From an uncultured Alphaproteobacteria bacterium (GTDB taxonomy: Bacteria; Pseudomonadota; Alphaproteobacteria; Sphingomonadales; Sphingomonadaceae), in the NCBI GenBank assembly GCA_963848555.1, contig CAWKEE010000002.1:420500-484499 (forward strand): a DNA stretch of 64,000 nucleotides, read 5' to 3'. The notes under the pieces were generated by a model, which saw only the letters and a list, made by a program, of their open reading frames with translations, was not told the DNA's origin and ran no database searches. Positions 7,016 through 22,802 of this stretch are shown piece by piece; within the stretch, counting starts at the first letter, position 1, and each line of letters opens with the position of its first letter. A program made the position numbers and the translations under genes.

Positions 7016-8524
7016 ATGCAGACTGTCGAGACGTTGAACGAGGGGCTGAAGCGCGCCTTTCGGATCACCATCCCCGCCAAGGAGATCGGCGCCCGCGTCG
7101 ACCAGGAGCTCAAGTCGATCGCGCCGCAGGTGCGGATGCCCGGCTTCCGCCCCGGCAAGGTGCCCGCCAATCTGGTGCGCAAGATGCATGGCGCCGCGCT
7201 TGAGCAGCAGGCGCTGCAGACCGCCGTCCAGGAAGGCGTCCAGCAGCTGATGAACGAGCGCAAGCTGCGGCCGGCGATGCAGCCGAGCGTCGAGCTGGAG
7301 GAAGGCGGGCCCGGCAAGGATGCGGTCGTCAAGGTCGAGGTGGAGACCCTTCCGGACGTGCCCGAGGCCCAGATCGACGGGCTGAAGATCGAGCGGCTGC
7401 GGGTCGAGGCGACCGAGGCGATGATCGACGAGGCGGTCGAACGGCTCGCCGCCGGCCAGCAAAGCTTCGAGCCGGCGCCGGCCGCGCGCAAGGCGGCGCT
7501 CGGCGACCGCCTGCTGATGGATTTCGAAGGCAAGGTCGACGGCGACGTTTTCGAGGGCGGCAAGGGCGAGGGGATGGCGATCGAGCTCGGCTCGGGCCGG
7601 CTCATTCCGGGCTTCGAGGAGCAGCTGGTCGGGGCCAAGGCCAACGACCAGCGCACCATCACCGTCACCTTCCCGGCCGATTATCATGTCGACTATCTGA
7701 AAGGCCGCGAGGCGGTGTTCGAAGTGACGGTGAACGAAGTCCAGCTGTCGCGCGAGGTCAAGCCGGACGACGCGTTCGCCAAGTCGATGGGCCTCGAGGG
7801 CATCGGCCAGCTGCGGGACCTGCTCAAGGCGCAGATCGAGCAGGAGCTGGGCGGTCTCACCCGTACCCAGATGAAGCGCCAGCTGCTCGACCAGCTCGCC
7901 GCCAGCCACGATTTCCCGGTGCCGCCGTCGATGGTCGAGGCGGAATTCGAGCAGATCTGGAAGCAGCTCGAGCATGAGGCGAGCCATGAGGCGGATCCCG
8001 CCGCCGCCCGCGCCGAGATGGAGAAAGAGCGCGACGACTACAGGTCGATCGCCGAGCGCCGGGTCCGGCTCGGACTGCTGCTGTCCGAGATCGGCCAGAA
8101 GAACGGTGTCGAGGTCAGCCAGCAGGAGATGAACCAGCTGATCATGCAGGCCGCCCAGCAGTACAAGCCCGAGGACCGGCCGAAGTTCGTCGAATATGTC
8201 CGCGGCGAGCCGATGGCCGCCGCCCAGCTGCGCGCGCCCTTGTTCGAGGACAAGGTGGTCGATTATCTGTTCGGCAAGGCCGAGATCAGCGAGCGCACGG
8301 TCACCCGCGCCGAGCTCGAGGCCGCGATCGAGGCCGAGGAGGATCATGTCCACGGTCCGGGCTGCGGCCACGACCATGGCGAGGAGACGAAGCCGAAGGC
8401 GAAAAAGGCCGCCGGCAAGAAAGCCGCCAGGCCGGCCGACGAAGGCGAAGCGGCCGCGGCCAAGCCGGCCAGGAAGCCGGCCGCCAGGAAGCCGGCGGCC
8501 AAGAAGGCCAAAGCCCCCGAATGA
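7016..8524 (+). CDS. tig: Trigger factor
   Basis: MPGFRPGKVP ribosome-binding motif, FKBP domain (IPGFEEQLVG), His-rich and Lys/Ala-rich tail. Confidence 0.97.
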   Translation: MQTVETLNEGLKRAFRITIPAKEIGARVDQELKSIAPQVRMPGFRPGKVPANLVRKMHGAALEQQALQTAVQEGVQQLMNERKLRPAMQPSVELEEGGPGKDAVVKVEVETLPDVPEAQIDGLKIERLRVEATEAMIDEAVERLAAGQQSFEPAPAARKAALGDRLLMDFEGKVDGDVFEGGKGEGMAIELGSGRLIPGFEEQLVGAKANDQRTITVTFPADYHVDYLKGREAVFEVTVNEVQLSREVKPDDAFAKSMGLEGIGQLRDLLKAQIEQELGGLTRTQMKRQLLDQLAASHDFPVPPSMVEAEFEQIWKQLEHEASHEADPAAARAEMEKERDDYRSIAERRVRLGLLLSEIGQKNGVEVSQQEMNQLIMQAAQQYKPEDRPKFVEYVRGEPMAAAQLRAPLFEDKVVDYLFGKAEISERTVTRAELEAAIEAEEDHVHGPGCGHDHGEETKPKAKKAAGKKAARPADEGEAAAAKPARKPAARKPAAKKAKAPE

Positions 8525-10107
8525 GCCCGGCCGGGGGGGCTGCCGCCGGCGCGGATCCGCCGCCGGCGGAGCCGCTCTGGCAACGGCCCTGGCTGTGGGC
8601 GGCGCTGGCCCTCATGTCGGCGCTGCCCTTCCTGATCGCGCCGCTGCCGATGCAGCCCGATTATTTCAGCCATGTCGGCCGCTATCACGTGATGAACGAA
8701 GCGGCCGGCGATCCCTTCCTGCCGCTTTATTATGCGTTCGAATGGAGACTGGTCGGCAATCTCGGCGTCGACCTGCTGGTGCGGCTGCTCGGGCCTCTGC
8801 TGGGGACCGAGCGCGCAGCCCACCTCGTCGTCGGGCTGATCCCGCCGCTCGGCGTCGGCGGCCTTTATGCCCTGGCCCGGGCCGCCGGCCGCGACTTCGG
8901 CCCCGGCGGGCTCGCCGCTTTGCCTTTGCTCTACGCTCTCCCGTTCACGATGGGTTTCGTCAATTTCTGCCTGGCGCAGGGGCTCGCTCTGTGGGCGGCG
9001 GCGATCTGGCTTCGCCTACGCAGGCGTCCGCCGCCGGTCCGCTGGACGTTCGCGGCCGCCGCCGGCGCGCTGGTCTGGACCGCCCACATCGCCGGCTGGG
9101 GCATATTGCTGGTGCTGATCGCCGCGCTCGAGCTCGCCGCGCTGCGCCGTTCCCCGGGGCTCGATGTGCGTGCGCTGTCGCGGGCCGCCGTCCGCCTGCT
9201 GCCGTTCGCCTTGCCGCTGATCCCGACCCTGTTGTGGCGGGCGGCCGGTCCGGCCGGCGGCGCACCGGCCGATCCCTGGTCGCCGGCGATGAAGTGGCTC
9301 TGGCTGCGCAGCCTGTTCCGCGGCGAAGCGCAGCTGTTCGACTATGCCGGCACGATCCTCACCTTCGGCCTCGTCCTGCTGCTGCTGGCGCTGCTGGCGC
9401 TGCGGCGGGCGCGGGCGCAGGCCGGGCTGGTCGGGGCGGGCCTCATCCTGCTCGGCTTGTTCCTGTCGCTGCCGCAGCTCCTGTTCGGTTCCTATTATGC
9501 CGACATGCGGCTGCTGCCGGCCGCCCTGATCCTGCTGCTGGTCGCGATCGTGCCGCGCTCGCCGCGCCTGTCGGCAGCGATCGCCGCGCTCGGCCTGCTG
9601 CTGTTCGCCGCCCGGATCGGGGTGACGGCGGCCGGCTGGCACCAGCGCGGCGCCGCGCTCGAGCGCGACCTTGCGGTGCTCGATCATGTGCCGCGGGGCA
9701 GCCGGATCGCGGTGATGGCCTGGCGCAGCCTGTGCTTCGGCTGGACTCCGGCCGGCTTCGAGCATGCGACGAGCCTGGCGATCGTCCGGCGCCACGCCTT
9801 CGTCAATTCGCAGTGGGATTATGCCGGCGCCAATCCGATGCGCCCGATCTACAATCGGGGGCGCGATTTCAACGCGGTGCCGTCCAACCTGATCGGCGGG
9901 CCGCGCCGGCTGTGCGAGGGCCGGCCGCTCGAGGAGATGCTGGCGAACCTGCCGCGCGACCGCTTCGATTTCGTCTGGATGTTCCAGGCCGAGGCGCCGG
10001 CCGGCGCGAATTGGCTGACTCCGGTGGCCGCTGGGCCGAATGGACGGCTTTATCGAGTTGAAGCGCGCCCCGCGGCTGGTAAAGCCTCGATTCGAGAGGG
10101 CGAATGA
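8521..10107 (+). CDS. Multipass membrane protein, probable GT-C fold glycosyltransferase
   Basis: Many hydrophobic helices, early PDY..H acidic loop, soluble C-terminal domain; ATGA-coupled to tig and to the downstream GT2. Confidence 0.6.
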   Translation: MSPAGGAAAGADPPPAEPLWQRPWLWAALALMSALPFLIAPLPMQPDYFSHVGRYHVMNEAAGDPFLPLYYAFEWRLVGNLGVDLLVRLLGPLLGTERAAHLVVGLIPPLGVGGLYALARAAGRDFGPGGLAALPLLYALPFTMGFVNFCLAQGLALWAAAIWLRLRRRPPPVRWTFAAAAGALVWTAHIAGWGILLVLIAALELAALRRSPGLDVRALSRAAVRLLPFALPLIPTLLWRAAGPAGGAPADPWSPAMKWLWLRSLFRGEAQLFDYAGTILTFGLVLLLLALLALRRARAQAGLVGAGLILLGLFLSLPQLLFGSYYADMRLLPAALILLLVAIVPRSPRLSAAIAALGLLLFAARIGVTAAGWHQRGAALERDLAVLDHVPRGSRIAVMAWRSLCFGWTPAGFEHATSLAIVRRHAFVNSQWDYAGANPMRPIYNRGRDFNAVPSNLIGGPRRLCEGRPLEEMLANLPRDRFDFVWMFQAEAPAGANWLTPVAAGPNGRLYRVEARPAAGKASIREGE

Positions 10108-11090
10108 CGAACATGCCGGGGCCGAGGATCGAAGCTGGAGCCGCCGCCGCGCCGGCGCTGCGCGTCGCGGTGCTGCTGCCCTGCTACAATGAGGAGGCGG
10201 CGATCGGGCAGACGGTCGCGGCGTTCCGCGCGGCGCTGCCCGACGCCCTGATCTACGTCTATGACAATAACAGCGCCGACCGCACCCGCGAGGTCGCGGC
10301 GGCGGCCGGGGCGATCGTCCGCGGCGAGCGGATGCAGGGCAAGGGCCATGTCGTGCGGCGGATGTTCGCCGACGTCGAGGCCGACATCTATGTGATGGCC
10401 GACGGCGACGCCACCTACGATGCGTCGGCGGCGCCGGCGATGATCGCCCGCTTGCTCGAGGAGCGGCTCGACATGGTGGTCGGCGCCCGCCAGTCCGAGG
10501 TCGAGAGCGAATCCTACCGGCCGGGCCATGTGCTGGGCAACCGGCTGTTCACCGGCTTGCTCGCCAGCCTGTTCGGCCGCACCTTCAGCGACATCTTCTC
10601 CGGCTACCGCATCTTCTCGCGGCGCTTCGCCAAATCCTTCCCGGCGCTGTCGCGCGGCTTCGAGACCGAGACCGAGATTTCGGTCCACGCGCTCGAGCTC
10701 GCCATGCCGGTCGGCGAGATGGTCACCGCCTACGGCGCGCGGCTGGAAGGGTCGCATTCCAAGCTGTCGACCTTCCGCGACGGCTGGCGGATCATGAAGA
10801 CGATCCTGCACCTGTTCCGGATCGAGCGGCCGGTCATCTTCTACGGCAGCTTCAGCCTGTTCCTCGCCGCGCTCGCCATCGCTTTGTCGATCCCGCTCGC
10901 CATCACCTATTTCGAGACCGGGCTGGTGCCGCGCTTCCCGACCGCGATCCTCGCCACCGGCCTGATGATCCTGGCGGCTTTGAGCTTCTTCGCCGGCCTG
11001 ATCCTCGACACGGTGGTGCGCGGCCGCCGCGAGGTCAGGCGGCTCCATTATCTGAGTTTTCCCGGTCCTGGAGAACGCATCCGCGACTAG
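10104..11090 (+). CDS. Glycosyltransferase family 2 (polyprenol-phosphate glycosyltransferase, GtrB-like)
   Basis: LLPCYNEE, VYDNNSAD, ADGDATY (DxD), DIFSGYR, GFETETE and two C-terminal TM helices. Confidence 0.9.
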   Translation: MTNMPGPRIEAGAAAAPALRVAVLLPCYNEEAAIGQTVAAFRAALPDALIYVYDNNSADRTREVAAAAGAIVRGERMQGKGHVVRRMFADVEADIYVMADGDATYDASAAPAMIARLLEERLDMVVGARQSEVESESYRPGHVLGNRLFTGLLASLFGRTFSDIFSGYRIFSRRFAKSFPALSRGFETETEISVHALELAMPVGEMVTAYGARLEGSHSKLSTFRDGWRIMKTILHLFRIERPVIFYGSFSLFLAALAIALSIPLAITYFETGLVPRFPTAILATGLMILAALSFFAGLILDTVVRGRREVRRLHYLSFPGPGERIRD

Positions 11091-11152
11091 ACGCTTTTCG
11101 AGGTGTATCGCGTCAAAGCTTTACGAAAACGACTCCATTTGCGAGGATGCCC

Positions 11153-11177
11153 TTGGTCACTCCGCTCGAGTGACCAA
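11153..11177. promoter_or_regulatory. Perfect 10-bp inverted repeat, candidate operator
   Basis: TTGGTCACTC-cgctc-GAGTGACCAA, ending 26 nt before the TTG start at 11204. Confidence 0.45.
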
Positions 11178-11203
11178 AGCGACGGAATCATGAGGTCTGG
11201 CCG

Positions 11204-11617
11204 TTGGAAATCCCATTTCCCGTTGAGTTTCTAGTCCTCGGTACGCCAGTTTCTGCGGCCACCAGGAATTACAAGGCGCGAGAGCGCTGGAAGGAACGTG
11301 TGAGAGAAGCAAGTAGGCCCGCTTTGCCGGATCCGCACTGGGCCGCCGATGATCGGCTGGCTGCTACTCTTTATTACTTTCCGGATCAGCCGATGCAGGG
11401 CGACGTTGATAACATCGTTAAATATACCTTGGATGGGATGAACAAACACATTTACTTAGACGATAGACAAGTCGACCGCGTAGTCGTTCAAAAGTTCGAA
11501 CCCGGCGCGGTCTACGAGTTTCGTGATCCATCCGTGACACTGCTGGAGGCCGTCGAGTCTGAAAGGCCGGTGCTCTACATTGAGCTGAGCACGGATATCT
11601 ATGGGGAACTGAAATGA
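11204..11617 (+). CDS. RusA-family endodeoxyribonuclease-like protein
   Basis: GDVDNIVKYTLDG...DDRQV matches the RusA DxDN-K-D...DD pattern; TTG start with GAGG 8 nt upstream; low GC. Confidence 0.78.
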   Translation: MEIPFPVEFLVLGTPVSAATRNYKARERWKERVREASRPALPDPHWAADDRLAATLYYFPDQPMQGDVDNIVKYTLDGMNKHIYLDDRQVDRVVVQKFEPGAVYEFRDPSVTLLEAVESERPVLYIELSTDIYGELK

Positions 11618-12279
11618 GTGCGCCTACCGTGGAGCGCTTGGCGATCGAGAATGTTGTACGGGACTTGGTCGAGCAAGGCTATGAAGTGCTGCAGGAACCG
11701 TCGCGGACCGCGACACCTGAGTTTCTGGCAGGGTATCGACCTGATCTGATCGCTTTCAAGGAGCCAGGTCCCAATCTGGTTGTCGAGGTCAAACGAAGGG
11801 GGCAGAAGTCTGCAACGAACCTCGCGGAAATCCGGAGGCGCTTTAAGGGCCACTCGGACTGGCAATTTAGCGTTGTGTGGGTCGAGCCAATGTCTGGCGC
11901 TGGAGGGATCGACTTATCGTCGGCTCAGGAGATTCATGATCGGACCACAGAGGCGGTTGGCCTCGTTGAGGCTGGCTATCTGCGACCGGCGCTGCTGATA
12001 TGCTGGGCGCTCCTTGAGGGCATCGCACGATCCTACCTTCCTGATACCTTGCAGAAACCTCAAGCGCCGCGAAGTGTAGTTCAGGCGTTGGAGGGCGAAG
12101 GATTCATCGATGCCGAAGAAGCAACGTTCCTCCGCCGGCTTGCCGAAGCGCGCAACAGGCTCATTCATGGCGTTGTTGGAGAGGATGTAGAAGAGTCGGA
12201 TGTTCGAGATTTCTTGGCGATAATTCAGCATTTAATTCGCGATTTGGCCACAACCAGCTTCGCCGCAGATGAAGACTAG
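11614..12279 (+). CDS. PD-(D/E)xK (AHJR-like REase) domain fused to HEPN domain
   Basis: N-terminal YRPDLIA...VVEVK; helical C-terminus with WALLE and ARNRLIHG (R-x4-H); ATGA overlap with the upstream gene; low GC. Confidence 0.75.
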   Translation: MSAPTVERLAIENVVRDLVEQGYEVLQEPSRTATPEFLAGYRPDLIAFKEPGPNLVVEVKRRGQKSATNLAEIRRRFKGHSDWQFSVVWVEPMSGAGGIDLSSAQEIHDRTTEAVGLVEAGYLRPALLICWALLEGIARSYLPDTLQKPQAPRSVVQALEGEGFIDAEEATFLRRLAEARNRLIHGVVGEDVEESDVRDFLAIIQHLIRDLATTSFAADED

Positions 12280-12385
12280 CTGCCGACGCACGCGCCGAGA
12301 TTCCGGCTGCTAACAGCTTGCGGCGCCGCGCGCGTGAGCACGCTGGGGTGGGGCGGCGGAAATAATTCCGCCGCCACCGATTGCC

Positions 12386-13366
12386 TCAATCTTCCGTGAT
12401 CGCCGGCAGCGTGAACGCGCCGTTCACGCCGTTGCCGCGATTGCGGTTGTTGCCATAGGTGTTGATGGTGCCGCCGCCGACGTCGACGCCGGTGCCGCAG
12501 CCGGTGATCGTCGTGTGGGCGACCCGCAATATGGTGCTGGAGCCGCCGTTCACGTCGATGCCGGTGCCGCTGCACAGCGCGATGAACGAATCGACGATCA
12601 TGCCGTTGACGCTGGTGGTCGCCGCCGGCTGGCCGACCTGGATGCCGTTGGTGCCGCCGACGAACTGGCTGTTCTCGACGAACAAAGAAATGCCGGCGCC
12701 GGTATTGCCGGTGGTGTCGACCCGCAACTGGTTGTTCAAATTGTTCTGGACGCGCACGTTCCTCAAGACCACCCGGGCGCTGCCGCCGGCGCCGGTCGGC
12801 TGGATCACGATGCCCCCGCCGGTGGTGGCGGTGCCATTGTCGGCGATCGTCGTGTTGGTGATCGTCACCTCGGTGGCCACGCTGGGCCGGATGTGGACGC
12901 CGACCCCGCTCGTCGCGTTGAAACGACGGATCGTGCTGTTCTGGATGTGGACCGCCCCGGCGGCGAGGATCCTGACGCCGTTGGTGGAAGTGCCGACTCC
13001 GAAAAAGTCGATGCCGCTCAGGAAGACGGTATCGGTCGCCGCGGCGTTGATAATAATCCCGTGGACGCCCGCGCCGGCGACCAGCGACCCGCCCTCGGTA
13101 TAGTCGCAGATGATCGACAGCGACTTGTTGATGGTGACGCCGCCATAGCCGCCCGGATCGAGGCAGTTGATCTCGCCGCCGGGCGCGGTCTTGATGATCG
13201 CGCCGGCGAAGGTCCGGCACGGCGCGGTGCGACTGCACGGATCGGCATCGCTGCCGACGCCCGAGACCCAGGTGCGGGTCGCCTGCGCCGAAGCGGGCGC
13301 GGCCCAGGTGGCTCCGGCCGCCAGAAGCATGGCCGCCAGAATGTTGCGCTTGCTGATCATGGTCAT
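12386..13366 (-). CDS. Secreted right-handed parallel beta-helix (pectin lyase-like) protein, copy 1
   Basis: Signal peptide, [18 protein letters not shown] start, Gly/Thr/Asn/Ile-rich beta-coil repeats. Confidence 0.82.
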   Translation of the reverse strand: MTMISKRNILAAMLLAAGATWAAPASAQATRTWVSGVGSDADPCSRTAPCRTFAGAIIKTAPGGEINCLDPGGYGGVTINKSLSIICDYTEGGSLVAGAGVHGIIINAAATDTVFLSGIDFFGVGTSTNGVRILAAGAVHIQNSTIRRFNATSGVGVHIRPSVATEVTITNTTIADNGTATTGGGIVIQPTGAGGSARVVLRNVRVQNNLNNQLRVDTTGNTGAGISLFVENSQFVGGTNGIQVGQPAATTSVNGMIVDSFIALCSGTGIDVNGGSSTILRVAHTTITGCGTGVDVGGGTINTYGNNRNRGNGVNGAFTLPAITED

Positions 13367-13387
13367 GTCGCGATTCCCTCTGCTGAT

Positions 13388-13438
13388 GCCGCATTGGCGC
13401 GGACGAGGGAGCCTAGGCCGGCGCTTGTCATCCGGCCA
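13388..13438 (-). promoter_or_regulatory. Conserved promoter plus leader hairpin, copy 1
   Basis: Minus strand TGGCCG-N17-TAGGCT followed by CGTCCGCGCCAATGCGGC. Confidence 0.5.
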
Positions 13439-13837
13439 TGGCTGAGTCCGGTCGAGGCGCCGGAGTGACCTGGCTGCTCACCAGCCGGCCAGGCGGCCGG
13501 TAAAGTTCACAAAGTTGAGGAAGTTGAGGGTCCAACGCGCCTGGGCGCGCCCGCGCGCGCGAGCCGGCCGCCCTCGCCGGCAGCCGGACGCGGCGGCGGC
13601 CGGGCGCGTTGACGAGCTCGCCCTTGCCCGGGATGGCGCGCAGTTCCTCCTCGTGAGCGCAGCTCTTGGGGAGGAAAACGCCCCGGCCAGCCGACCGTTG
13701 AGGCCGGTTCACGATAAGAAAGAGCCGCCTTCCGCCGGCAGGGAAGGCCGAATCAGACCCGCTCGAGCACCCAAATTTATATCACAAATATGTTAGATCG
13801 CCAATAGTAGTCTATTAAAGCCCCTCAGATACAGACT

Positions 13838-13887
13838 GGCGGGCGGGAGCGGCATGTCGATACGGCGAGGCCCGCTCCCCGCCGCCT
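13838..13887 (-). terminator. GC-rich stem-loop downstream of beta-helix copy 2
   Basis: GCGGGCGGGAGCGG ... CCGCTCCCCGCCGC arms directly after the stop at 13892. Confidence 0.4.
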
Positions 13888-13891
13888 GGCT

Positions 13892-14869
13892 TCAATCCTC
13901 CGAGATCGCCGGCAGCGTGAAGGCGCCGGCGGCGGTGTTGCCGTCGTTGCGGTTGTTGCCATAGGTGTTGACGGTTCCGCCGCCGACGTCGACGCCGGTG
14001 CCGCAGCGGGTGATCGTCGTGTGGGCGACCCGCAGGGTCGTGGCGGAGCCGCCGTTCACGTCGATGCCGGTGCCGGTGCACATCGCGATGGTCGAACCGG
14101 TGATCATGCCGACGACATTGGTGGTCCCGTTCGGCTGGCCGACCTGGATGCCGTTCGTGCCGCCGATGAACTGGCTGTCCTCGACCACCAGCGAAATGCC
14201 GGAGCCGGTATTGCCGGTGGTGTCGATCCTCAGCTGGTTGTTCGCATTGTTCTGGACGCGCACGTTCCTCAACGTCACCTGGGCGCTGCCGCCGGCGCCG
14301 GTCGGCTGGATCAATATGCCGCCGCCGGTGGCGCCGCTGCCATTGTCGGCGATGGTGGTGTCGACGATCGTCACCTGGGTGGCGGTGCTCGGCGTGATGC
14401 GGACGCCGAGGCCGCTCGCCGCGTTGAACCGGCGGATCACGCTGTCCTGAAGGTGGACGACGCCGCCGGCGAGGATCCTGAGGCCGTTGGTGGCGGTGGT
14501 GGCGCCCTGGAAATCGATGCCGCGCAGGAAGACGGAATCACTCGCCCCGGCGTTGACGGTGATGCCGTTGACGCCGGCGCCGGCGACCAGCGAGCCACCT
14601 TCGGTATATTGGCAGATGATCGAGATCGACTTGTTGATGGTGAGGCCGCCATAGCCGCCCGGATCGAGGCAGTTGATCTCGCCGCCGGCCGAGGTCTTGT
14701 TGAAGGCGCCGGCGAAGGTGCGGCACGGCGCGGTGCGGCTGCACGGATCGGCGTCGTTGCCGACGCCCGACACGAAGGTGCGGGTCTGCGCGGTCACGTG
14801 CACCGCCCAGGTGCTGCCGGTCACCAGAAGAACCGCCGCCAAGAGCTTACGCCTGCTGAACTGGGACAT
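13892..14869 (-). CDS. Secreted parallel beta-helix protein, copy 2
   Basis: Paralog of copy 1 with its own signal peptide; ends AFTLPAISED. Confidence 0.82.
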   Translation of the reverse strand: MSQFSRRKLLAAVLLVTGSTWAVHVTAQTRTFVSGVGNDADPCSRTAPCRTFAGAFNKTSAGGEINCLDPGGYGGLTINKSISIICQYTEGGSLVAGAGVNGITVNAGASDSVFLRGIDFQGATTATNGLRILAGGVVHLQDSVIRRFNAASGLGVRITPSTATQVTIVDTTIADNGSGATGGGILIQPTGAGGSAQVTLRNVRVQNNANNQLRIDTTGNTGSGISLVVEDSQFIGGTNGIQVGQPNGTTNVVGMITGSTIAMCTGTGIDVNGGSATTLRVAHTTITRCGTGVDVGGGTVNTYGNNRNDGNTAAGAFTLPAISED

Positions 14870-14887
14870 GTCGAATCTCCCTCCATT

Positions 14888-14939
14888 GCCGCATCGGCGC
14901 GGACGGTGGGAGACTAAGTCCTGCCCGGTGGCTGTGCCA
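14888..14939 (-). promoter_or_regulatory. Conserved promoter plus leader hairpin, copy 2
   Basis: Minus strand TGGCAC-N17-TAGTCT followed by CGTCCGCGCCGATGCGGC. Confidence 0.5.
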
Positions 14940-15028
14940 CCGATTAGTTTGTTGGGCGCATGCGGCCGTTCAGCGAATCCCTGCCTTCCGTGCCGTACAG
15001 CCTGTCGCTGTCGCCGCCTGCGCCCGAC

Positions 15029-16003
15029 TCAATCCTCCGCGATCGCCGGCAGCGTGAAGGCGCCGGCGGCGGTGTTGCCGTCGTTGCGGTTGTTGCCATA
15101 GGTGTTGATGGTTCCGCCGCCGACGTCGACGCCGGTGCCGCATCGGGTGATCGTCGTGTGGGCGACTCGCACCGTCGTGCTGGATCCGCCGTTCACGTCG
15201 ATGCCGGTGCCGGTGCACATCGCGATGGTCGAACCGGTGATCATGCCGACGACATTGGTGGTCCCGTTCGGCTGGCCGACCTGGATGCCGTTCGTGCCGC
15301 CGATGAACTGGCTGTCCTCGACCACCAGCGAAATGCCGGAGCCGGTATTGCCGGTGGTGTCGATCCTCAGCTGGTTGTTCGCATTGTTCTGGACGCGCAC
15401 GTTCCTCAACGTCACCTGGGCGCTGCCGCCGGCGCCGGTCGGCTGGATCAATATGCCGCCGCCGGTGGCGCCGCTGCCATTGTCGGCGATGGTGGTGTCG
15501 ACGATCGTCACCTGGGTGGCGGCGCTCGGCGTGATGCGGACGCCGAGGCCGCTCGCCGCGTTGAACCGGCGGATCACGCTGTCCTGAAGGTGGACCACGC
15601 CGCCGGCGAGGATCCTGAGGCCGTTGGTGGCGGTGGTGGCGCCCTGGAAATCGATGCCGCGCAGGAAGACGGAATCACTCGCCCCGGCGTTGACGGTGAT
15701 GCCGTTGACGCCCGCGCCGGCGACCAGCGAGCCGCCTTCGGTATATTGGCAGATGATCGAGATCGACTTGTTGATGGTGAGGCCGCCATAGCCGCCGGGA
15801 TCGAGGCAGTTGATCTCGCCGCCCGGCGCGGTCTTGTTGAAGGCGCCGGAGAAGGTGCGGCAGGGCGCGGTCCGGCTGCACGGATCGGCGTCGTTGCCGA
15901 CGCCCGACACGAACGTGCGGGTCGCCTGCGCGTAGAGGTGGGTGGCCCAACCGCTGCCGGTCACCAGGAGAATCGCCGCGAACATCTTGCGCTTGCTGGT
16001 CAT
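15029..16003 (-). CDS. Secreted parallel beta-helix protein, copy 3
   Basis: Start MTSKRKMF at 16003 after GAGGAG; nearly identical to copy 2 at an offset of 1137 nt; ends [10 protein letters not shown]. Confidence 0.82.
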
Positions 16004-16020
16004 GTTGAACCTCCTCGATT

Positions 16021-16072
16021 GCCGCATCGGCGCGGACGGGGCGAGCGTAGGACTTCGGCCGCCGCGCGGCTA
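16021..16072 (-). promoter_or_regulatory. Conserved promoter plus leader hairpin, copy 3
   Basis: Minus strand TAGCCG-N17-TACGCT followed by CGTCCGCGCCGATGCGGC. Confidence 0.5.
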
Positions 16073-16291
16073 CCGCTTCGTGCCGCGGGACGGGGCGGCG
16101 CCCGCCAGTCGCCCGGGCCGCGGCGCATGTCGCCCCTGTAACAATATTGCCACGGCTCGCGGAAATCGGCGGTGCCGGCAGCAACCGGCAAGAGAATATT
16201 CTCCCCGATTATCGAGCGGCGGAGTAGAAAAGCGCAGGGACTTGAGGCGCCGCCACACGAAGCGGCCGCCGGTTCTTGGGGAAAGCCAGCG

Positions 16292-19159
16292 ATGATCAGC
16301 TTCACGCGCAAATTCCGCATCTCCGCCGCCACTCTCGCCATCGCCGCCGCCACCGTCGCCATGCCGGGCACGGCCTGGGCGCAGCCGGGCACCCAGCCCG
16401 ATGAGGCGCAGCCGGCGACCGACGCCGGCGAGAGCGAGGACGAAGGCTCGATCCTCGTCACCGGCTCGCGCATCCGCCGCGACCCGCTCGACCAGGACCA
16501 GCCGGTCGTGTTCGTCGACCGCGCCGACATCGATCGCACCGGCCTGGTTTCGACCGCCGAGGTGCTGCAGCGCCTGCCGAGCTCGGGCGGCGCGCTCAAC
16601 AGCCGGTTCAACAATAGCGGCAATTTCGGCAATCCGCCCGACGGCGGCGGCGTCGGCGCCGGCGCCGCCGAGGTCGACCTGCGCTATCTCGGCTCGCGCC
16701 GCACGCTCGTCCTCCTCAACGGCCTGCGCTACGTCAACGCCGCCTCGGCGAGCGGCGTGCCGGGCTCGACCGACTTGAACACCATCCCCGAGAATATGAT
16801 CGAGCGGATCGAGGTGCTGCAGATGGGCGCCGGCGCCATTTACGGCTCGGACGCCATTGCCGGCGTCGTCAACATCATCCCGTTGACCAGCCAGGAGGGT
16901 TTCCGCGCCTCGGCCCAGATGGGCGGCTTCATCGAGGGCGACGGCTTCCAGCAGAATTATGCGCTGAGCTGGGGCAGCGGCGGCCCCGAGGACTCCACCC
17001 GGATCATCGTCGGCGGCCATTATTTCAAGCAGGACGAGGTCAGCTCGGGCTCGCGCGAGCTGTCGCAATTCCCGACGCCGGGCATCGGCGCCTGCGACAA
17101 CACCTGCAGCTCGGGAACGCCGAACGGCCGCTTCATCGTGCTCGACCAGGACCTGACCCTGCGCGCGCCGGTGATCGGACGCGCACCCACGCTCGCCGAC
17201 TACCGCGCCTTCGCCGGCGCTCCGGACCGGTTCAACTTCGCGCCGTTCAACTTCCAGCAGATCCCGCTCGAGCGCTATGGCGGCTTCGTCACCCTGGTCC
17301 AGGAGCTGGGCGAGAACGCCACCTTCACCGCGCGCGGCATCTACAACCGTCGCAATTCGAGCAACCAGGCGGCGCCATTGCCTCTGTTCGTCGGGCCCGA
17401 CGCCGGCAATGGCAATCTGCTCGACACGATCGCGATCGACGTCACCAACCCGTTCAACCCGTTCGGGGTGACCCTGCGCGGCGACGATCCGACGACCGAC
17501 GGCGTCAACGAAGCGACCTACGCCTTCATCGGCCGCCGCGTCGTCGAGAACGGCCCGCGCCGCTACGACCAGCAGGTCGACACTTATTATATCTCGGCGA
17601 CGCTCGACGGCTCGTTCGAGCTGATGGGCAATGAATGGTTCTGGGACGTCAACGGGGTCTGGGGGCGCAACCGCGCCGAGCAGGAGGTGCACGGCAACAT
17701 CAACGCCGCCAACCTCGCCCGCGCTTTGGGGCCGGTGGCGGCCTGCACCGCGCCGTGCGTGCCGTTCAACATCTTCGGCGGCGCCGGCTCGATCACCCAG
17801 CCGATGCTCGATTTTGTCGCCTTCACCCAGCGCGATTCGAGCCGCCAGCGGCTGTGGGACGTTTCCGCCAACCTCACCGGCGGCCTGTTCGAGCTGCCCG
17901 GCGGCACCGCCGCGATCGCGTTCGGCATCGAGCATCGCGACCAGAAAGGCCGGTTCGATCCGGACCCGATCGTCGCCGCCGGCCTCGGTTCAGACATTCC
18001 GGCGCTGCCGACCGCCGGCGGCTTCAACGTCGACGAGGCCTATGCCGAGCTGCGGCTGCCGCTGCTCCGCGACACGCCCTTCTTCCACCGCCTCGAGCTG
18101 ACCGGCGCCGCCCGATATTCCGATTATTCGACATCGGGTTCGACGACGACGTTCAGCGCCGGCGTGAACTGGCAGCCGATCGAGGACCTGCTGTTCCGCG
18201 GCAGCTGGGCGGAAGGCTTCCGCGCGCCCAGCATCGGCGAATTGTTCGGCACGCCGTCACGCTTCGACCAGGAGGTGAGCGATCCCTGCTCGCAGGGCAG
18301 CACCGCCGACCGCAATTTCGAGAATGACGCGACGGTGCGCGCGAATTGCATCGCCGAGGGCGTCCCCGCCGACGGCAGCTACCAGCAGCTGAACTCGCAA
18401 ATCTCGGTGGTGACCGGCGGCAACGAGGATCTCGACGCCGAGAGCTCGGAAAGCTGGGGAGTCGGCGCGGTGTGGAGTCCGTCCTTCCTGCCCAGGCTGT
18501 CGCTCGAGGCCAATTATTTCAACATCCGCGTCGACGGCGCCATCCAGGCGATCGACGCCGAGGTGCTGCTCGCCCGCTGCGCCAACACCCGCGACGCGCT
18601 GAGCTGCGACGCGATCAGCCGCACCGGCTCGGGCCAGATCTCGCAAATCCGCGGCTTCCTGCAGAACATCGCCAGCATCGAGACCGACGGCCTCGACCTG
18701 ATCCTGAACTATCGCAGCCCGGAGACCGGCGCGGGCACATTCGGCCTGTACTGGTCCAACACCTTCCTGTTCAACTACGACGTCACCGTCCCGGCCACGG
18801 ACGGTTTCACCGTCATCGCGCGCGAAGGCACCGAGCAGGGCAGCCCGGACCAGGCCTTCCCGAAATACAAGTCGACCGCGATCCTCGACTGGAGCTGGGA
18901 GGAATTCGGCGCCTCGATCACCGGCCGCTATATCGGCGGCGTCGACGAGGCCAACGGCAACCGCATGGACTCGATGTTCTACACCGATCTGCAGATCCGG
19001 TTCGAGGTCAACGACCGGTTCGGCTTCGCGATCGGCGCCAACAACATCTTCGGCGCCGATCCGCCGCCCTGCTTCACCTGCGGCCTCAACAATATCGATC
19101 CGACCACTTACGACGTGCCCGGCACCTTCGTTTACGCCCGGGCGACGCTGAGGATGTAG
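16292..19159 (+). CDS. TonB-dependent receptor
   Basis: Signal peptide, ILVTGSRI TonB-box region, plug motif IERIEVL...[19 protein letters not shown]-terminal [16 protein letters not shown] beta-strand. Confidence 0.93.
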
Positions 19160-19215
19160 GGCGTTGGGGACGGCCGCTCGCGGCTGTCCCCGGCGACTTC
19201 TTCTCCCGGCGCGCC

Positions 19216-20223
19216 TCAGACGGCCGCGTCGGTCTGCCCGGCTCCGCTTCGGGAAGCTTGGCCCTGGCCCCTCTCGTCGTCGGAAGCCGGAAACCACCTG
19301 AAATGGACGCCATGGCCTTTCAGGAAGGGCTGCTTGAGCTTGACGGTACGGCTGCGCGGGCTCTGTTCGGGCACCAGCGTGCTCAGTTCGGGATGCATGG
19401 CGCTGACGGCAAATATGAGGTCGCGGACCGGCGACTCCCATGTCAGGCACAGCTCGATGTCGGTGGACGGGATCGTCGAGGACCAGACGCCCGTATCGTG
19501 GTCGTGTTTCACCACATAGTGAACGGCTTCGACGTCGGCTTTCCCCAAATATTCGAGGGGAAGGGGCTTCTTAAGCTCGTATAGTTGTCCCCGTGTCTCC
19601 GGCTCGTCGACACGTTCGATCTCGTCGACCGGCACCTCTTTGCCGTTGATCCTGAGTTCGTGCAGCCCCAGCTGCGCGTCCCATTCCGTGTTTCCGGTTT
19701 GCAATGGTTTGATGTCGACCCGCCATTTCAGTGGGAACTCACTTATGTCATCTTTCGTGCAGACGTTCACGACGCGGTAGCGGATCGATTGGCGGACCAG
19801 GAGGTCTTCGCCGCTCTGCTTTTCGAATGCGTAGCAGACGACGACATTGCTTCGATAGAATCTCTGCTTCAGGACATATTCTTCGATCTTGTCGAAAAAC
19901 GAACTCGTCGGGCGCACGCCATAGAGAAGGCCGATCGCGGTCTTGCAATGATGCTGTGCCGACCATTCCTCGATCATCCAGAAGACGACGACCGCAATCA
20001 AAATGGCGAAGCCGAGCTCGCTCGATAACAGGCCGAAGAACTTGTCGGACATGTCGTGTGTGAGTTCATAGCGATCGAGCAGATAGATGCCGAAGCTAAT
20101 GAGGCCGATGCCGGCAATCAGGTAAAGCTTCCAGCGCCAGATGGCCGTGAAAACGTGCTTGATCCATTTGCCGAGGGCTTTGAGTATCCAATGTCGTTTA
20201 GGTTTGTCGCCTGCCGTAGCCAT
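19216..20223 (-). CDS. Hypothetical protein, two N-terminal TM helices plus beta-rich domain
   Basis: 335-aa ORF with lower GC; hydrophobic segments LYLIAGIGLISFGIYLL and LGFAILIAVVVFWMI. Confidence 0.7.
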   Translation of the reverse strand: MATAGDKPKRHWILKALGKWIKHVFTAIWRWKLYLIAGIGLISFGIYLLDRYELTHDMSDKFFGLLSSELGFAILIAVVVFWMIEEWSAQHHCKTAIGLLYGVRPTSSFFDKIEEYVLKQRFYRSNVVVCYAFEKQSGEDLLVRQSIRYRVVNVCTKDDISEFPLKWRVDIKPLQTGNTEWDAQLGLHELRINGKEVPVDEIERVDEPETRGQLYELKKPLPLEYLGKADVEAVHYVVKHDHDTGVWSSTIPSTDIELCLTWESPVRDLIFAVSAMHPELSTLVPEQSPRSRTVKLKQPFLKGHGVHFRWFPASDDERGQGQASRSGAGQTDAAV

Positions 20224-20459
20224 GCCGCCTCTCCTGTGGCCGTCTTCAGCATAGCGCGGTCCAACGGGTCCGGTCGCTGCATTTTACGTCCATTTCAGAG
20301 CTGATCGCCCGGACCTTGCGCTCTGCCGAGCGTTGGAGGCCGGCGGATTTGGCGGGGCCGGCCGCTCATGGGCGGCGCCGCGGACGACGCTTGGAACGCG
20401 CGGGCTATCCCCCTATCTTCGAGTCGCGCGGCACCTGGCCGCAGTGAGGGAGTATCGCC

Positions 20460-20723
20460 ATGGCCGGTGGTTGGGCGCGCGACGGCGCCGTCCAGGATCA
20501 GATCGACGACACCGTCGCCGACGCGGTGAAGCTCGCCCGCGCGCGCCTTCCCGCCGGCGACAGCGCGACCCATTGCGAGGAATGCGGCGAGCCGATTCCC
20601 GCCGCCCGCCGCCGAGCCTTGCCGGGGACGCGGACCTGCGTGGCCTGCCAGGCCGAGCGCGACGCCCGCCGGCCGAGCGCCGGCATCAACCGCCGCGGCA
20701 GCAAGGACAGCCAGCTGCGCTAG
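20460..20723 (+). CDS. DksA/TraR family C4 zinc finger protein (YbiI-like)
   Basis: MAGGWARDGAVQDQI, CEECG...RR...CVAC. Confidence 0.9.
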   Translation: MAGGWARDGAVQDQIDDTVADAVKLARARLPAGDSATHCEECGEPIPAARRRALPGTRTCVACQAERDARRPSAGINRRGSKDSQLR

Positions 20724-20748
20724 GCCGACCACAAGCGAGGAATCTCCC

Positions 20749-21132
20749 ATGCCCACCGGATCCTGCCTGTGCGGCGCCGTCAGCTTCGAGGTGAGCGGTC
20801 CGCTCAAGGCGCCCGATGCCTGCCATTGCTCGCAATGCCGGCGGCAGTCGGGCCATTACTGGGCGTCGACCGATGTGCGCCGCGACGCGCTGACCATCAG
20901 CGGCGAAGAAAGGATCAGCTGGTACCGGTCCTCGGAGAAGGTACGGCGCGGTTTCTGCTCGGCTTGCGGATCGGTGCTGTTCTGGGATCCGGACGGCCGC
21001 GACCGCATCGCGGTCGCCATGGGTGCGTTCGACGCGCCGACCGGCACCCGCCTCGAAAAGCACATCTTCACCGCCGCCAAGGGCGATTATTACGACATCG
21101 CCGACGGCCTGCCGCAGGAGCCGGGCTGGTGA
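20749..21132 (+). CDS. GFA/CENP-V family protein
   Basis: GSCLCGAV, CHCSQCRR, RGFCSACGS. Confidence 0.9.
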   Translation: MPTGSCLCGAVSFEVSGPLKAPDACHCSQCRRQSGHYWASTDVRRDALTISGEERISWYRSSEKVRRGFCSACGSVLFWDPDGRDRIAVAMGAFDAPTGTRLEKHIFTAAKGDYYDIADGLPQEPGW

Positions 21133-21166
21133 TGGCGCCCGCCGGCTGCCGCGTTGAGGGAGCGTC

Positions 21167-22021
21167 ATGACTCTCATGCCCGCCTTGTTCATCGGTCACG
21201 GCAGCCCGATGAACACGCTCGAGGAGAATGGCTATACGCGGGCCTGGCGCCGCCTCGGCGAGCAGCTGCCGCGGCCGCGGGCGCTGCTGGTCGTTTCCGC
21301 CCACTGGTATATCGGCGCCACCGCGGTGACCGCGATGGCGCGGCCGCGCACCATCCACGATTTCTACGGCTTCCCGCCCGAGCTGTTCGCCTTCGACTAT
21401 CCGGCGCCGGGCGCGCCCGACCTGGCCGGCGAAGTGGTCGAGATCGTCAAGCCGCGCTGGGTCGGCCTCGACCGCGACCAGTGGGGCCTCGATCACGGCA
21501 CCTGGAGCGTGCTCGCCCATCTCTATCCGCGCGCCGACATGCCGGTCGTCCAGCTTTCGATCAACGCGCTGAAGCCGCTCGATTATCATCTCGACCTCGC
21601 CGCGCGGCTGGCGCCGCTGCGCGAGCGCGGCGTGATGATCGTCGGCAGCGGCAACGTCGTCCACAATCTCGCCCGGATCCGGTGGGACCGGCCGGACGGT
21701 GCATTCGACTGGGCGGAGCGGTTCGACGAGGCGGTGGCCGCCCGGCTCGCCGAAGCGCCGGGCGACATTTTGAAGGTCGCGGAACATCCCGATTATCCGG
21801 CGGCGGTGCCGACCCCGGACCATTTCATCCCTTTGCTCTACCTCGCCGGGCTGGCCGCCGGCGACGGCAAGGCCGACGCGCTGGTTCGCGGCCACGCGCT
21901 CGGGTCGATCTCGATGAGCTGCTACGGCGTCGGCGTCGGCGCCGACGTCCGGCTCGAGGCCGAGCCGACCGGCGCGGCGACGCTTCCGGCAGGCGTCCCG
22001 CCGGACCAGACCAATATGTAG
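21167..22021 (+). CDS. 4,5-DOPA extradiol dioxygenase (LigB/YgiD family)
   Basis: [45 protein letters not shown]. Confidence 0.9.
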
Positions 22022-22061
22022 GGGGCGGGACCGCTCCGCCGTCCCGATGTACCAGCTCTGT

Positions 22062-22490
22062 CTAGGGCGACACGTCCGCGCGGCGGGCCGTCCATCTGTC
22101 CCCGGGCTTGCTGACATAATGGGCAAACACATAGCCCCAGGGCATGACGATCAGGTCGGCGGCGACGCCGATCGCCATCGCCCGGGTGAACCCTGCCGTC
22201 TCCGCGTCGAACGGGGCGCCGGCCCGCCACAGCGGCAGCGCCACCGCCAGCAGCCAGATCGTCTTGTAGACCAGCTGCACGAAGATCAGCGGCACCATCT
22301 GGAGCGGGTAGCGCAGCCCGACCGCCGCCAGCAGCGCCAGCGCGCCCCAGAAGCTGAAAGCCACCGCGTCCAGCGGATCGAGCGGCGTCGGGCGGGTCAG
22401 CGCCGGCAGCGCCATCGAACCCACGCCGAGCAGGATCAGCAGGTAAAAGGCGCGCATCAGATACAATCTCAGCAGCGATACCTCGCTCAT
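22062..22490 (-). CDS. Hypothetical four-helix membrane protein
   Basis: 142-aa hydrophobic ORF with GGAGG RBS-like sequence. Confidence 0.7.
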   Translation of the reverse strand: MSEVSLLRLYLMRAFYLLILLGVGSMALPALTRPTPLDPLDAVAFSFWGALALLAAVGLRYPLQMVPLIFVQLVYKTIWLLAVALPLWRAGAPFDAETAGFTRAMAIGVAADLIVMPWGYVFAHYVSKPGDRWTARRADVSP

Positions 22491-22802
22491 TCCCGCCTCC
22501 TTTGCTCAAGTGGGAAAGTCGCCGGTGACGGCGCGGTGCGAGGCCGCACGACCGTCCGGAATCCCCTAGCCCGTTTCCCACTTGATGGCGCGCCTGGATC
22601 GCCCGCGCACATGATCCTGCAGCCCAAATCATGATCGCACGTTCCACGACCCGGAGCGCAGCCGGGATCGGGCCGCCGGCCGATGCCGGAAGAATGGCGG
22701 CGCGGCCCGGCCGATCGACGAGGCCGCCGGGGCTTGAACCACGCCGCATATCCTCCGATGTAGCGCATGCTGACCACCCCATTTGCAGGACCCGTCCCCA
22801 TC

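Follow-up and report, generated by a model that had tools for sequence, protein, structure and literature searches.

A stretch of 64,000 nucleotides (hereafter, the window) from an uncultured alphaproteobacterium of the family Sphingomonadaceae (GenBank assembly GCA_963848555.1, contig CAWKEE010000002.1, positions 420,500 to 484,499 of the forward strand) contains, between tig and clpP, a pair of short co-directional genes, hereafter gene 1 and gene 2. Their products are predicted to bring together a RusA-fold nuclease (gene 1) and a fusion of a domain related to the archaeal Holliday junction resolvase Hjc with a HEPN domain (gene 2). A first-pass annotation of the window had proposed two open reading frames (ORFs) with an ATGA overlap at this site, and the same coordinates were recovered here; this overlap of stop and start codons implies that the two genes are likely to be translationally coupled. 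Overlaps of this kind (ATGA, GTGA or TGATG types) are present in all 18 loci inspected, and the TTG start of gene 1 aligns with ATG or GTG starts in its homologs. The annotation had also placed the GC content of the pair far below that of the host, in agreement with the finding that the lowest-GC 1-kb bin of the window is 11001-12000 (0.561, compared to the window mean of ~0.685). The GC content at third codon positions (GC3) is 0.580 for gene 1 and 0.595 for gene 2, versus 0.87-0.92 in all neighbors, namely tig, the GT2 gene, genes for secreted proteins, a TonB-dependent receptor gene, clpP and clpX. The GC content of the pair is below that of its flanks in 16 of 18 loci.

Gene 1 and gene 2 belong to a single unit, and their pairing is obligate. 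Matched whole-genome profile searches of the same 401 class-level genomes (308 genera) identify a full-length gene 2 in nine genomes, and in all nine a full-length gene of the RusA clade lies directly upstream on the same strand. In this set, there is no RusA-clade match without gene 2, and seven motif-only RusA matches and eight HEPN-only matches are never paired. A gene 1 profile scan of 185,579 species genomes yields 406 loci; among the best 80, which were inspected for gene 2, 79 contain it directly 3' of gene 1 on the same strand. The lone exception, from a metagenome-assembled genome (MAG) of Defluviicoccus, has an IS110-family transposase (locus L055, 5424-6869) exactly at the gene 1 stop/gene 2 start, and its homology with the sister loci ends exactly at the gene 1 stop codon. 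In an index of 5.8 billion proteins, every gene 2 homolog with enough flanking sequence, including those from Verrucomicrobia and other phyla, has a RusA gene directly upstream. The mirror-tree correlation between the two genes is 0.74, with the highest value among 999 permutations being 0.15, and there is one copy per genome. Gene 2 diverges faster than gene 1 (mean pairwise identity of 0.37 vs 0.58), which accounts for the small number of its relatives in a word-indexed search (24, compared to 412 for gene 1); an exhaustive gene 2 profile search (E <= 1e-30) identifies 1,151 clusters at 50% identity, nearly all of them comprising proteins of 210-230 amino acids. The co-occurrence across genomes that the first-pass annotation had proposed to look for is thus evident (nine of nine genomes and 79 of 80 loci), and the homologs are neither usually unlinked nor located in prophage late regions, the arrangements that it had named as speaking against a module.

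Gene 1 matches the RusA family of Pfam (PF05866) with 41.2 bits (cut-off 22.8, E=3e-10). Searching the PDB by sequence returned no meaningful match to either protein, so the folds were searched instead. A Foldseek search of the PDB started with the AlphaFold model of gene 1 (predicted local distance difference test score, pLDDT, 92.8; predicted template modeling score, pTM, 0.88) retrieves only Escherichia coli RusA (1q8r and 2h8c), with a template modeling score of up to 0.80 and a root mean square deviation of 2.6 Å. With the K-12 rusA annotated in the DLP12 prophage as the comparison sequence, D67, D69, N70, K73, D77, D86 and D87 of gene 1 align to D70, D72, N73, K76, D80, D90 and D91 of the E. 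coli protein, the overall identity being 14%. The equivalents of the catalytic aspartate triad and lysine of E. coli RusA, which we take to be D70, D72, D91 and K76, are accordingly D67, D69, D87 and K73, kept in 80-81 of the 81 family members. Over the entire site, D67, D69, N70, K73 and D77 are present in 81/81, D86 in 79/81 and D87 in 80/81. The partner clade, to which gene 1 belongs, additionally has a C-terminal helix-strand extension of ~25 amino acids that is missing in E. coli RusA. Gene 1 is thus best described as a predicted RusA-fold nuclease, with a complete and strictly conserved catalytic site. It shares with the E. coli enzyme the fold and all aligned catalytic residues but, unlike rusA, is never found in a prophage context and is always coupled to a gene for an AHJR-HEPN protein.

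Gene 2 matches the AHJR-like family (PF18743) with 68.5 bits (cut-off 26.1, E=5e-19) and, as a marginal pass, the HepT-like family (PF01934) with 24.6 bits (cut-off 23.5, E=2e-5); the HepT equivalog NF047751 of NCBIfam scores 21.1 bits against a cut-off of 60. The AlphaFold model (pLDDT 89.9) comprises a restriction endonuclease (REase) core at residues 6-90 and a helical bundle at residues 104-220, with a short disordered stretch (94-97) as the linker. In Foldseek searches of the PDB, the N-terminal half identifies archaeal Hjc and VRR_NUC structures (2eo0, 2wiw, 1gef, 4qbn) with the probability of 1.0, and the C-terminal half identifies HEPN/HepT structures (2hsb, 7ae9, 5yep, 6m6w); no solved structure in that database spans both halves. 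The REase residues E7, P43-D44, E58 and K60 do not vary among the 22 closest relatives of gene 2. Across the family, E7 is found in 68/80, the P-D pair in 78/80 and E58 in 74/80, whereas the lysine of the ExK motif is kept in just 12/80 partners, with arginine in two more; it is replaced by V, A or L in most members, and 34 of the 80 proteins contain no basic residue at positions +2 to +4. Given this pattern, it is possible that in many members the Hjc-like domain does not act as a DNase but has a binding or adaptor role. Like archaeal Hjc (PF01870; 1gef, 2wiw, 2eo0), it contains the PD-ExK core, here in the form E...PD...ExK, but it is bacterial and fused to HEPN, and, with the catalytic lysine replaced in most members, resolvase activity is doubtful family-wide. 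The HEPN motif is retained at R in 78/80, N in 72/80 and H in 79/80. Thus, two active sites, those of RusA and HEPN, are constant across the family, and the REase site is variable.

These results can be compared with the domain calls of the first-pass annotation. Its assignments of RusA, AHJR-type REase and HEPN pass the Pfam cut-offs and are matched by the Foldseek results, the RusA pattern (DVDN, K, D, DD) aligns at all residues with E. coli RusA, and the PD...EVK and C-terminal RNRLIH motifs are read in gene 2 as described there. Its claim of three nuclease active sites is correct for the window copy, in which all the motifs are present, but does not extend to the family, owing to the variable REase lysine.

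A rare lineage re-partitions the domains, with a 235-amino-acid RusA-AHJR fusion followed by a separate 91-amino-acid HEPN ORF; a triple RusA-AHJR-HEPN fusion was not found among the longer family members. This re-partition argues for a joint function of the three domains, in which the Hjc-like domain occupies the middle position. In locus L006 (2433-4015; also L007-L009), the RusA-AHJR fusion and the HEPN ORF are followed by an ORF of 168 amino acids with a weak match to another HEPN family, PF05168, and the L006 fusion locus adjoins a PIN-domain toxin-antitoxin pair.

Table 1. Features of the gene pair and its immediate surroundings (window coordinates)
Feature	Position	Strand	Description
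Gene 1	11204-11617	+	137 aa, TTG start; predicted RusA-fold junction endonuclease, 'partner' clade
Gene 2	11614-12279	+	221 aa, ATG start; predicted AHJR-like (Hjc-like) PD-ExK domain + HepT-like HEPN domain
ATGA stop/start overlap, gene 1/gene 2	11614-11617	+	read from sequence
RusA catalytic motif	11402-11464	+	D67-V-D69-N70-I-V-K73 (11402-11422), D77, D86-D87 (11459-11464)
REase (Hjc-like) core, residues 6-90	11629-11883	+	a-b-b-b-a-b secondary structure (model)
REase motif residues	E7 11632-11634; P43-D44 11740-11745; E58-V-K60 11785-11793	+	read from sequence
HEPN helical bundle, residues 104-220	11923-12273	+	model and Foldseek
HEPN motif R180-N-R-L-I-H185	12151-12168	+	read from sequence
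Perfect 10-bp inverted repeat	11153-11177	none	TTGGTCACTC-N5-GAGTGACCAA; 27 nt upstream of gene 1 start
GC-rich hairpin	12352-12375	none	GGCGGCGGAA-ATAA-TTCCGCCGCC; between gene 2 and convergent secreted-protein gene

The pair moves horizontally as a ~1.1-kb unit into unrelated chromosomal and plasmid sites. Approximately 50 distinct flank contexts are represented among ~77 named loci, e.g., between groEL and higBA, beside cobO, and in a Verrucomicrobia MAG; long-lived syntenic groups exist as well, such as that of Bradyrhizobium and Rhodopseudomonas species. The hosts include such well-studied bacteria as Bradyrhizobium, Rhizobium, Mesorhizobium, Methylobacterium and Rhodopseudomonas, and the pair is present on six plasmids or chromids, from Rhizobium, Methylobacterium, Azospirillum and Agrobacterium. 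At some loci, it adjoins HigB/HTH and PIN toxin-antitoxin pairs, and on the Rhizobium plasmid pT136b, its neighbors are AbiEi/AbiEii, IS5, a GHKL ATPase and a restriction endonuclease. A GHKL-type ATPase of 644-659 amino acids (HATPase_c_3) is encoded downstream of the pair both on the Ti plasmid pTi_CFBP2177 and on pT136b (L043, 5658-7592, and L044, 7253-9232); it was considered as a general partner and rejected, adjoining the pair on these two plasmids only. The nearest-neighbor ORFs, 150 from 38 independent contexts, were surveyed as counts without a formal background rate; no Pfam family occurs in more than three contexts, so that a conserved third gene can be dismissed. PADLOC matches among these neighbors are few and largely generic, e.g., UvrD-type helicases on GajB models. 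In this respect, the pair resembles solitary toxin-antitoxin-like modules and not defense-island residents.

Comparison with known systems indicates that the pair is a new HEPN-based two-gene module, with an unprecedented partner, RusA, and without a name. The fusion of an AHJR-like REase with a HEPN domain of the DUF86/HepT type is listed in the 'HEPN-M' row of Table 1 of Anantharaman et al. 2013 (PMC3710099), which bears out the statement of the first-pass annotation that such fusions are known at the domain level. The architecture is that of gene 2 (PF18743 + PF01934), for which both folds are supported here, but the listing is limited to domains and includes nothing on the obligate RusA partner, on mobility or on the variability of the REase lysine; RusA does not occur in the text and supplement of that article that were examined. 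A literature search found no paper that links RusA with HEPN, DUF86, HepT or AHJR in a relevant way, and neither protein has a match at E <= 1 in PADLOC-DB v2.0.0 (a 2023 release, earlier than systems described since), so that, as suspected from the sequence, the pairing does not correspond to a named system.

HEPN proteins are toxins in the HepT/MntA and abortive infection (Abi) systems (PMC3710099). The HepT/MntA type VII toxin-antitoxin system (Shewanella SO_3166/SO_3165, 5yep; also 7ae9 and 6m6w) is likewise a small mobile module of two coupled genes, and the C-terminal domain of gene 2 shows the HepT-like HEPN RNase fold with the R-x4-H motif. Here, however, the upstream partner is a RusA-fold nuclease instead of an MNT nucleotidyltransferase, with no MNT gene nearby in the window or in ~100 related loci, and the HEPN domain is preceded by an additional Hjc-like domain. 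The module also resembles the HEPN-containing Abi proteins (AbiA, AbiJ, AbiD/F) in that a HEPN RNase is the presumed effector, but there is no sequence relation beyond the HEPN superfamily, and the junction nuclease is encoded by the module itself. Escape mutants of AbiA and AbiJ, both of which contain HEPN, map to phage genes for single-strand annealing proteins and Holliday junction resolvases (PMC13064643, a 2026 review of lactococcal Abi). In view of these mutants, HEPN effectors could plausibly be linked to recombination intermediates, although nothing on the RusA/AHJR-HEPN module follows from them. The pair further shares several generic features with type II toxin-antitoxin systems: both genes are small, they overlap in the same orientation, and they spread horizontally. 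Current annotation, in which gene 1 is a repair enzyme and gene 2 is hypothetical or 'HepT-like', conceals this unit.

Several toxin-antitoxin, Abi and CRISPR systems employ HEPN RNases as effectors; to our knowledge, how these RNases are silenced and switched on is understood for only a few. In the present case, the HEPN protein is tied to two Holliday junction resolvase folds instead of a nucleotidyltransferase antitoxin. The explanation that we favor, and consider moderately probable, is that the pair is a two-gene conflict module, either toxin-antitoxin-like or involved in abortive infection, in which a RusA/Hjc-like junction part is coupled to a HEPN RNase. RusA, Hjc-like and HEPN domains all normally work as dimers; because of this and of the lineage with the separate RusA-AHJR and HEPN proteins, it is most likely that the products of gene 1 and gene 2 form a single complex in which the Hjc-like domain connects RusA to HEPN. 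The RusA/Hjc-like part might then recognize or cleave branched DNA, conceivably intermediates that arise when phages and plasmids recombine or replicate, and this recognition or cleavage could be coupled to the release of the HEPN RNase, which would arrest the cell or the invader. If the pair is indeed a defense or addiction module, a new trigger logic, based on DNA structure, would be added to bacterial immunity, and the small size of the module (1.1 kb) makes direct testing feasible.

Several observations weigh against a conflict module. A catalytically intact, highly conserved RusA is unlike a simple proteic antitoxin, the ExK lysine of the Hjc-like domain is lost in most partners, and neither gene 1 nor gene 2 contains a DNA-binding antitoxin domain (HTH, helix-turn-helix; RHH, ribbon-helix-helix; or AbrB) detectable with Pfam. 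An upstream operator repeat is not conserved in the 79 loci compared. The tyrosine that MntA AMPylates (Rx4HxY) has no counterpart here, the corresponding sequence being RNRLIHGV in the window and RNxxxHG in the family. The failure of PADLOC-DB to recognize either protein points in the same direction, as do the surveyed neighbors, which are mostly metabolic or housekeeping genes with no defense-island signal. On pTi_CFBP2177, the pair adjoins ligD and imuA/imuB/dnaE2, and it is retained in synteny across Bradyrhizobium and Rhodopseudomonas species, which fits a useful cellular function as well. The standalone defense cassette of the first-pass annotation is accordingly upheld in part: the pair is standalone, one unit and not derived from a phage, and the region of the window indeed lacks phage genes, a methyltransferase and a DNA-binding antitoxin; the defense role itself stays conjectural, and the enrichment in defense islands that it had suggested looking for is not observed.

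A more specific form of the conflict-module explanation, which we put forward only as a tentative possibility, would make the pair an immune sensor-effector responding to the shape of DNA instead of its sequence: a dedicated RusA dimer and the (often catalytically degenerate) Hjc-like domain would bind four-way or forked DNA arising from the replication or recombination of phages and plasmids and thereby turn the HEPN RNase dimer on. If true, this would be the first bacterial defense built on Holliday junction resolvase folds as the sensor.

The main rival to a conflict module is an accessory function in DNA recombination or repair, in which RusA and the Hjc-like domain would process branched DNA of the host, as a RuvC back-up or in fork rescue, and HEPN would serve as a dimerization or nucleic acid-binding domain. 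The full conservation of the RusA catalytic site, the repair Gene Ontology terms assigned to gene 1 by RefSeq, the repair genes on pTi_CFBP2177, the synteny in Bradyrhizobium and Rhodopseudomonas, and the housekeeping neighbors without defense-island enrichment are all compatible with such a role, which would represent an unexpected use of a HEPN domain. However, a mere scaffold does not need the HEPN R-N-x3-H motif, which is ~98% conserved, and the patchy distribution (2% of class genomes and three of 37 congeneric species), the foreign composition of the pair, the fast divergence of gene 2, the carriage on plasmids, and the adjacent toxin-antitoxin and Abi modules make this role unlikely.

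Less likely than a repair function, and quite improbable in our assessment, is a selfish mobile cassette, homing-like or addiction-only, with one nuclease cutting cassette-free sites and RusA resolving the intermediates of copy-in repair. The ~50 insertion contexts with flanks of less than 50 nucleotides and no recombinase, the insertions within operons, e.g., between flhB and fliR, the low GC content in most hosts, and the single copy per genome would be expected of such an element, but neither a conserved target sequence nor a terminal repeat or flanking motif is apparent, and the copies within one genus are located in variable regions instead of a precise homing site. Moreover, homing leaves the conserved HEPN RNase unexplained, and the REase lysine that is needed for cutting is usually lost. 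Finally, a prophage remnant, in which a decayed prophage would have left behind a common phage RusA together with a passenger gene, is highly improbable and effectively refuted: although RusA is typically encoded by prophages (E. coli DLP12 is an example) and PHROGs RusA families weakly match gene 1, gene 2 has no match in 50,697 phage records, phage genes are absent from the window's region and ~100 related loci, and gene 1 belongs to a distinct, always paired partner clade set apart by its length, C-terminal extension and low identity to K-12 RusA.

Within the genus, the pair occupies two sites: in the window it lies in the tig-clpP interval, and in two congeners (G009 and G023) it is found in the hemF region. 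In congeners, tig and GT2 are followed by clpP within 0.4-1.1 kb, whereas the window contains ~11.6 kb of extra DNA between GT2 and clpP (~11,070-22,730). The other genes in this extra DNA and a membrane-protein gene upstream of GT2 have a native GC3 of ~0.90, and the gene pair alone is compositionally foreign; hence the pair represents a separate, more recent acquisition. The window locus is thus a copy, acquired recently, of a two-gene operon that is widespread. Among the relatives, no clean empty site corresponding to this copy could be obtained, and, because of the extra ~11.6 kb, the exact ends of the cassette are not definable.

Additional features surround the pair. The inverted repeat upstream of gene 1 (Table 1) could form a local hairpin or be a candidate operator; as a family-wide toxin-antitoxin operator, such a repeat was rejected, given that the best upstream repeat averages 5.3 bp, compared to 4.9 bp in shuffled sequences (79 loci). 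A scan for σ70-consensus promoters gave no site, and in the closest relatives, the upstream gene ends just 30-50 nucleotides before gene 1. No RNA run was found to contain the sequence. The hairpin downstream of gene 2 is probably a terminator shared with the convergent gene. In a metagenomic genome, the pair lies inside a flagellar export operon, between flhB and fliR, on the opposite strand (L004, 3359-6527).

The order tig - GT2 - clpP - clpX, conserved in congeners, is broken in the window, where a gene for a 528-amino-acid membrane protein (8521-10107) is also inserted between tig and GT2. The extra DNA encodes three secreted beta-helix paralogs, a TonB-dependent receptor (16172-19159) and ORFs without a Pfam match; a second, weaker GC dip in this variable region (19001-20000, 0.603) likewise coincides with ORFs that have no Pfam match. 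The hemF region is a second variable hotspot in the genus: gene 1 of the pairs located there in G009 and G023 is 43-45% identical to that of the window, and at the same site, the genome of the window (G000, C4:246294-250953) contains 4.7 kb of other DNA. In another congener (G029), a 130-nucleotide duplicate of the 3' end of GT2 (L033, 2829-2960, equivalent to window positions 10900-11033) is found ~650 nucleotides downstream of GT2 and might have been left by recombination at the border of the variable region.

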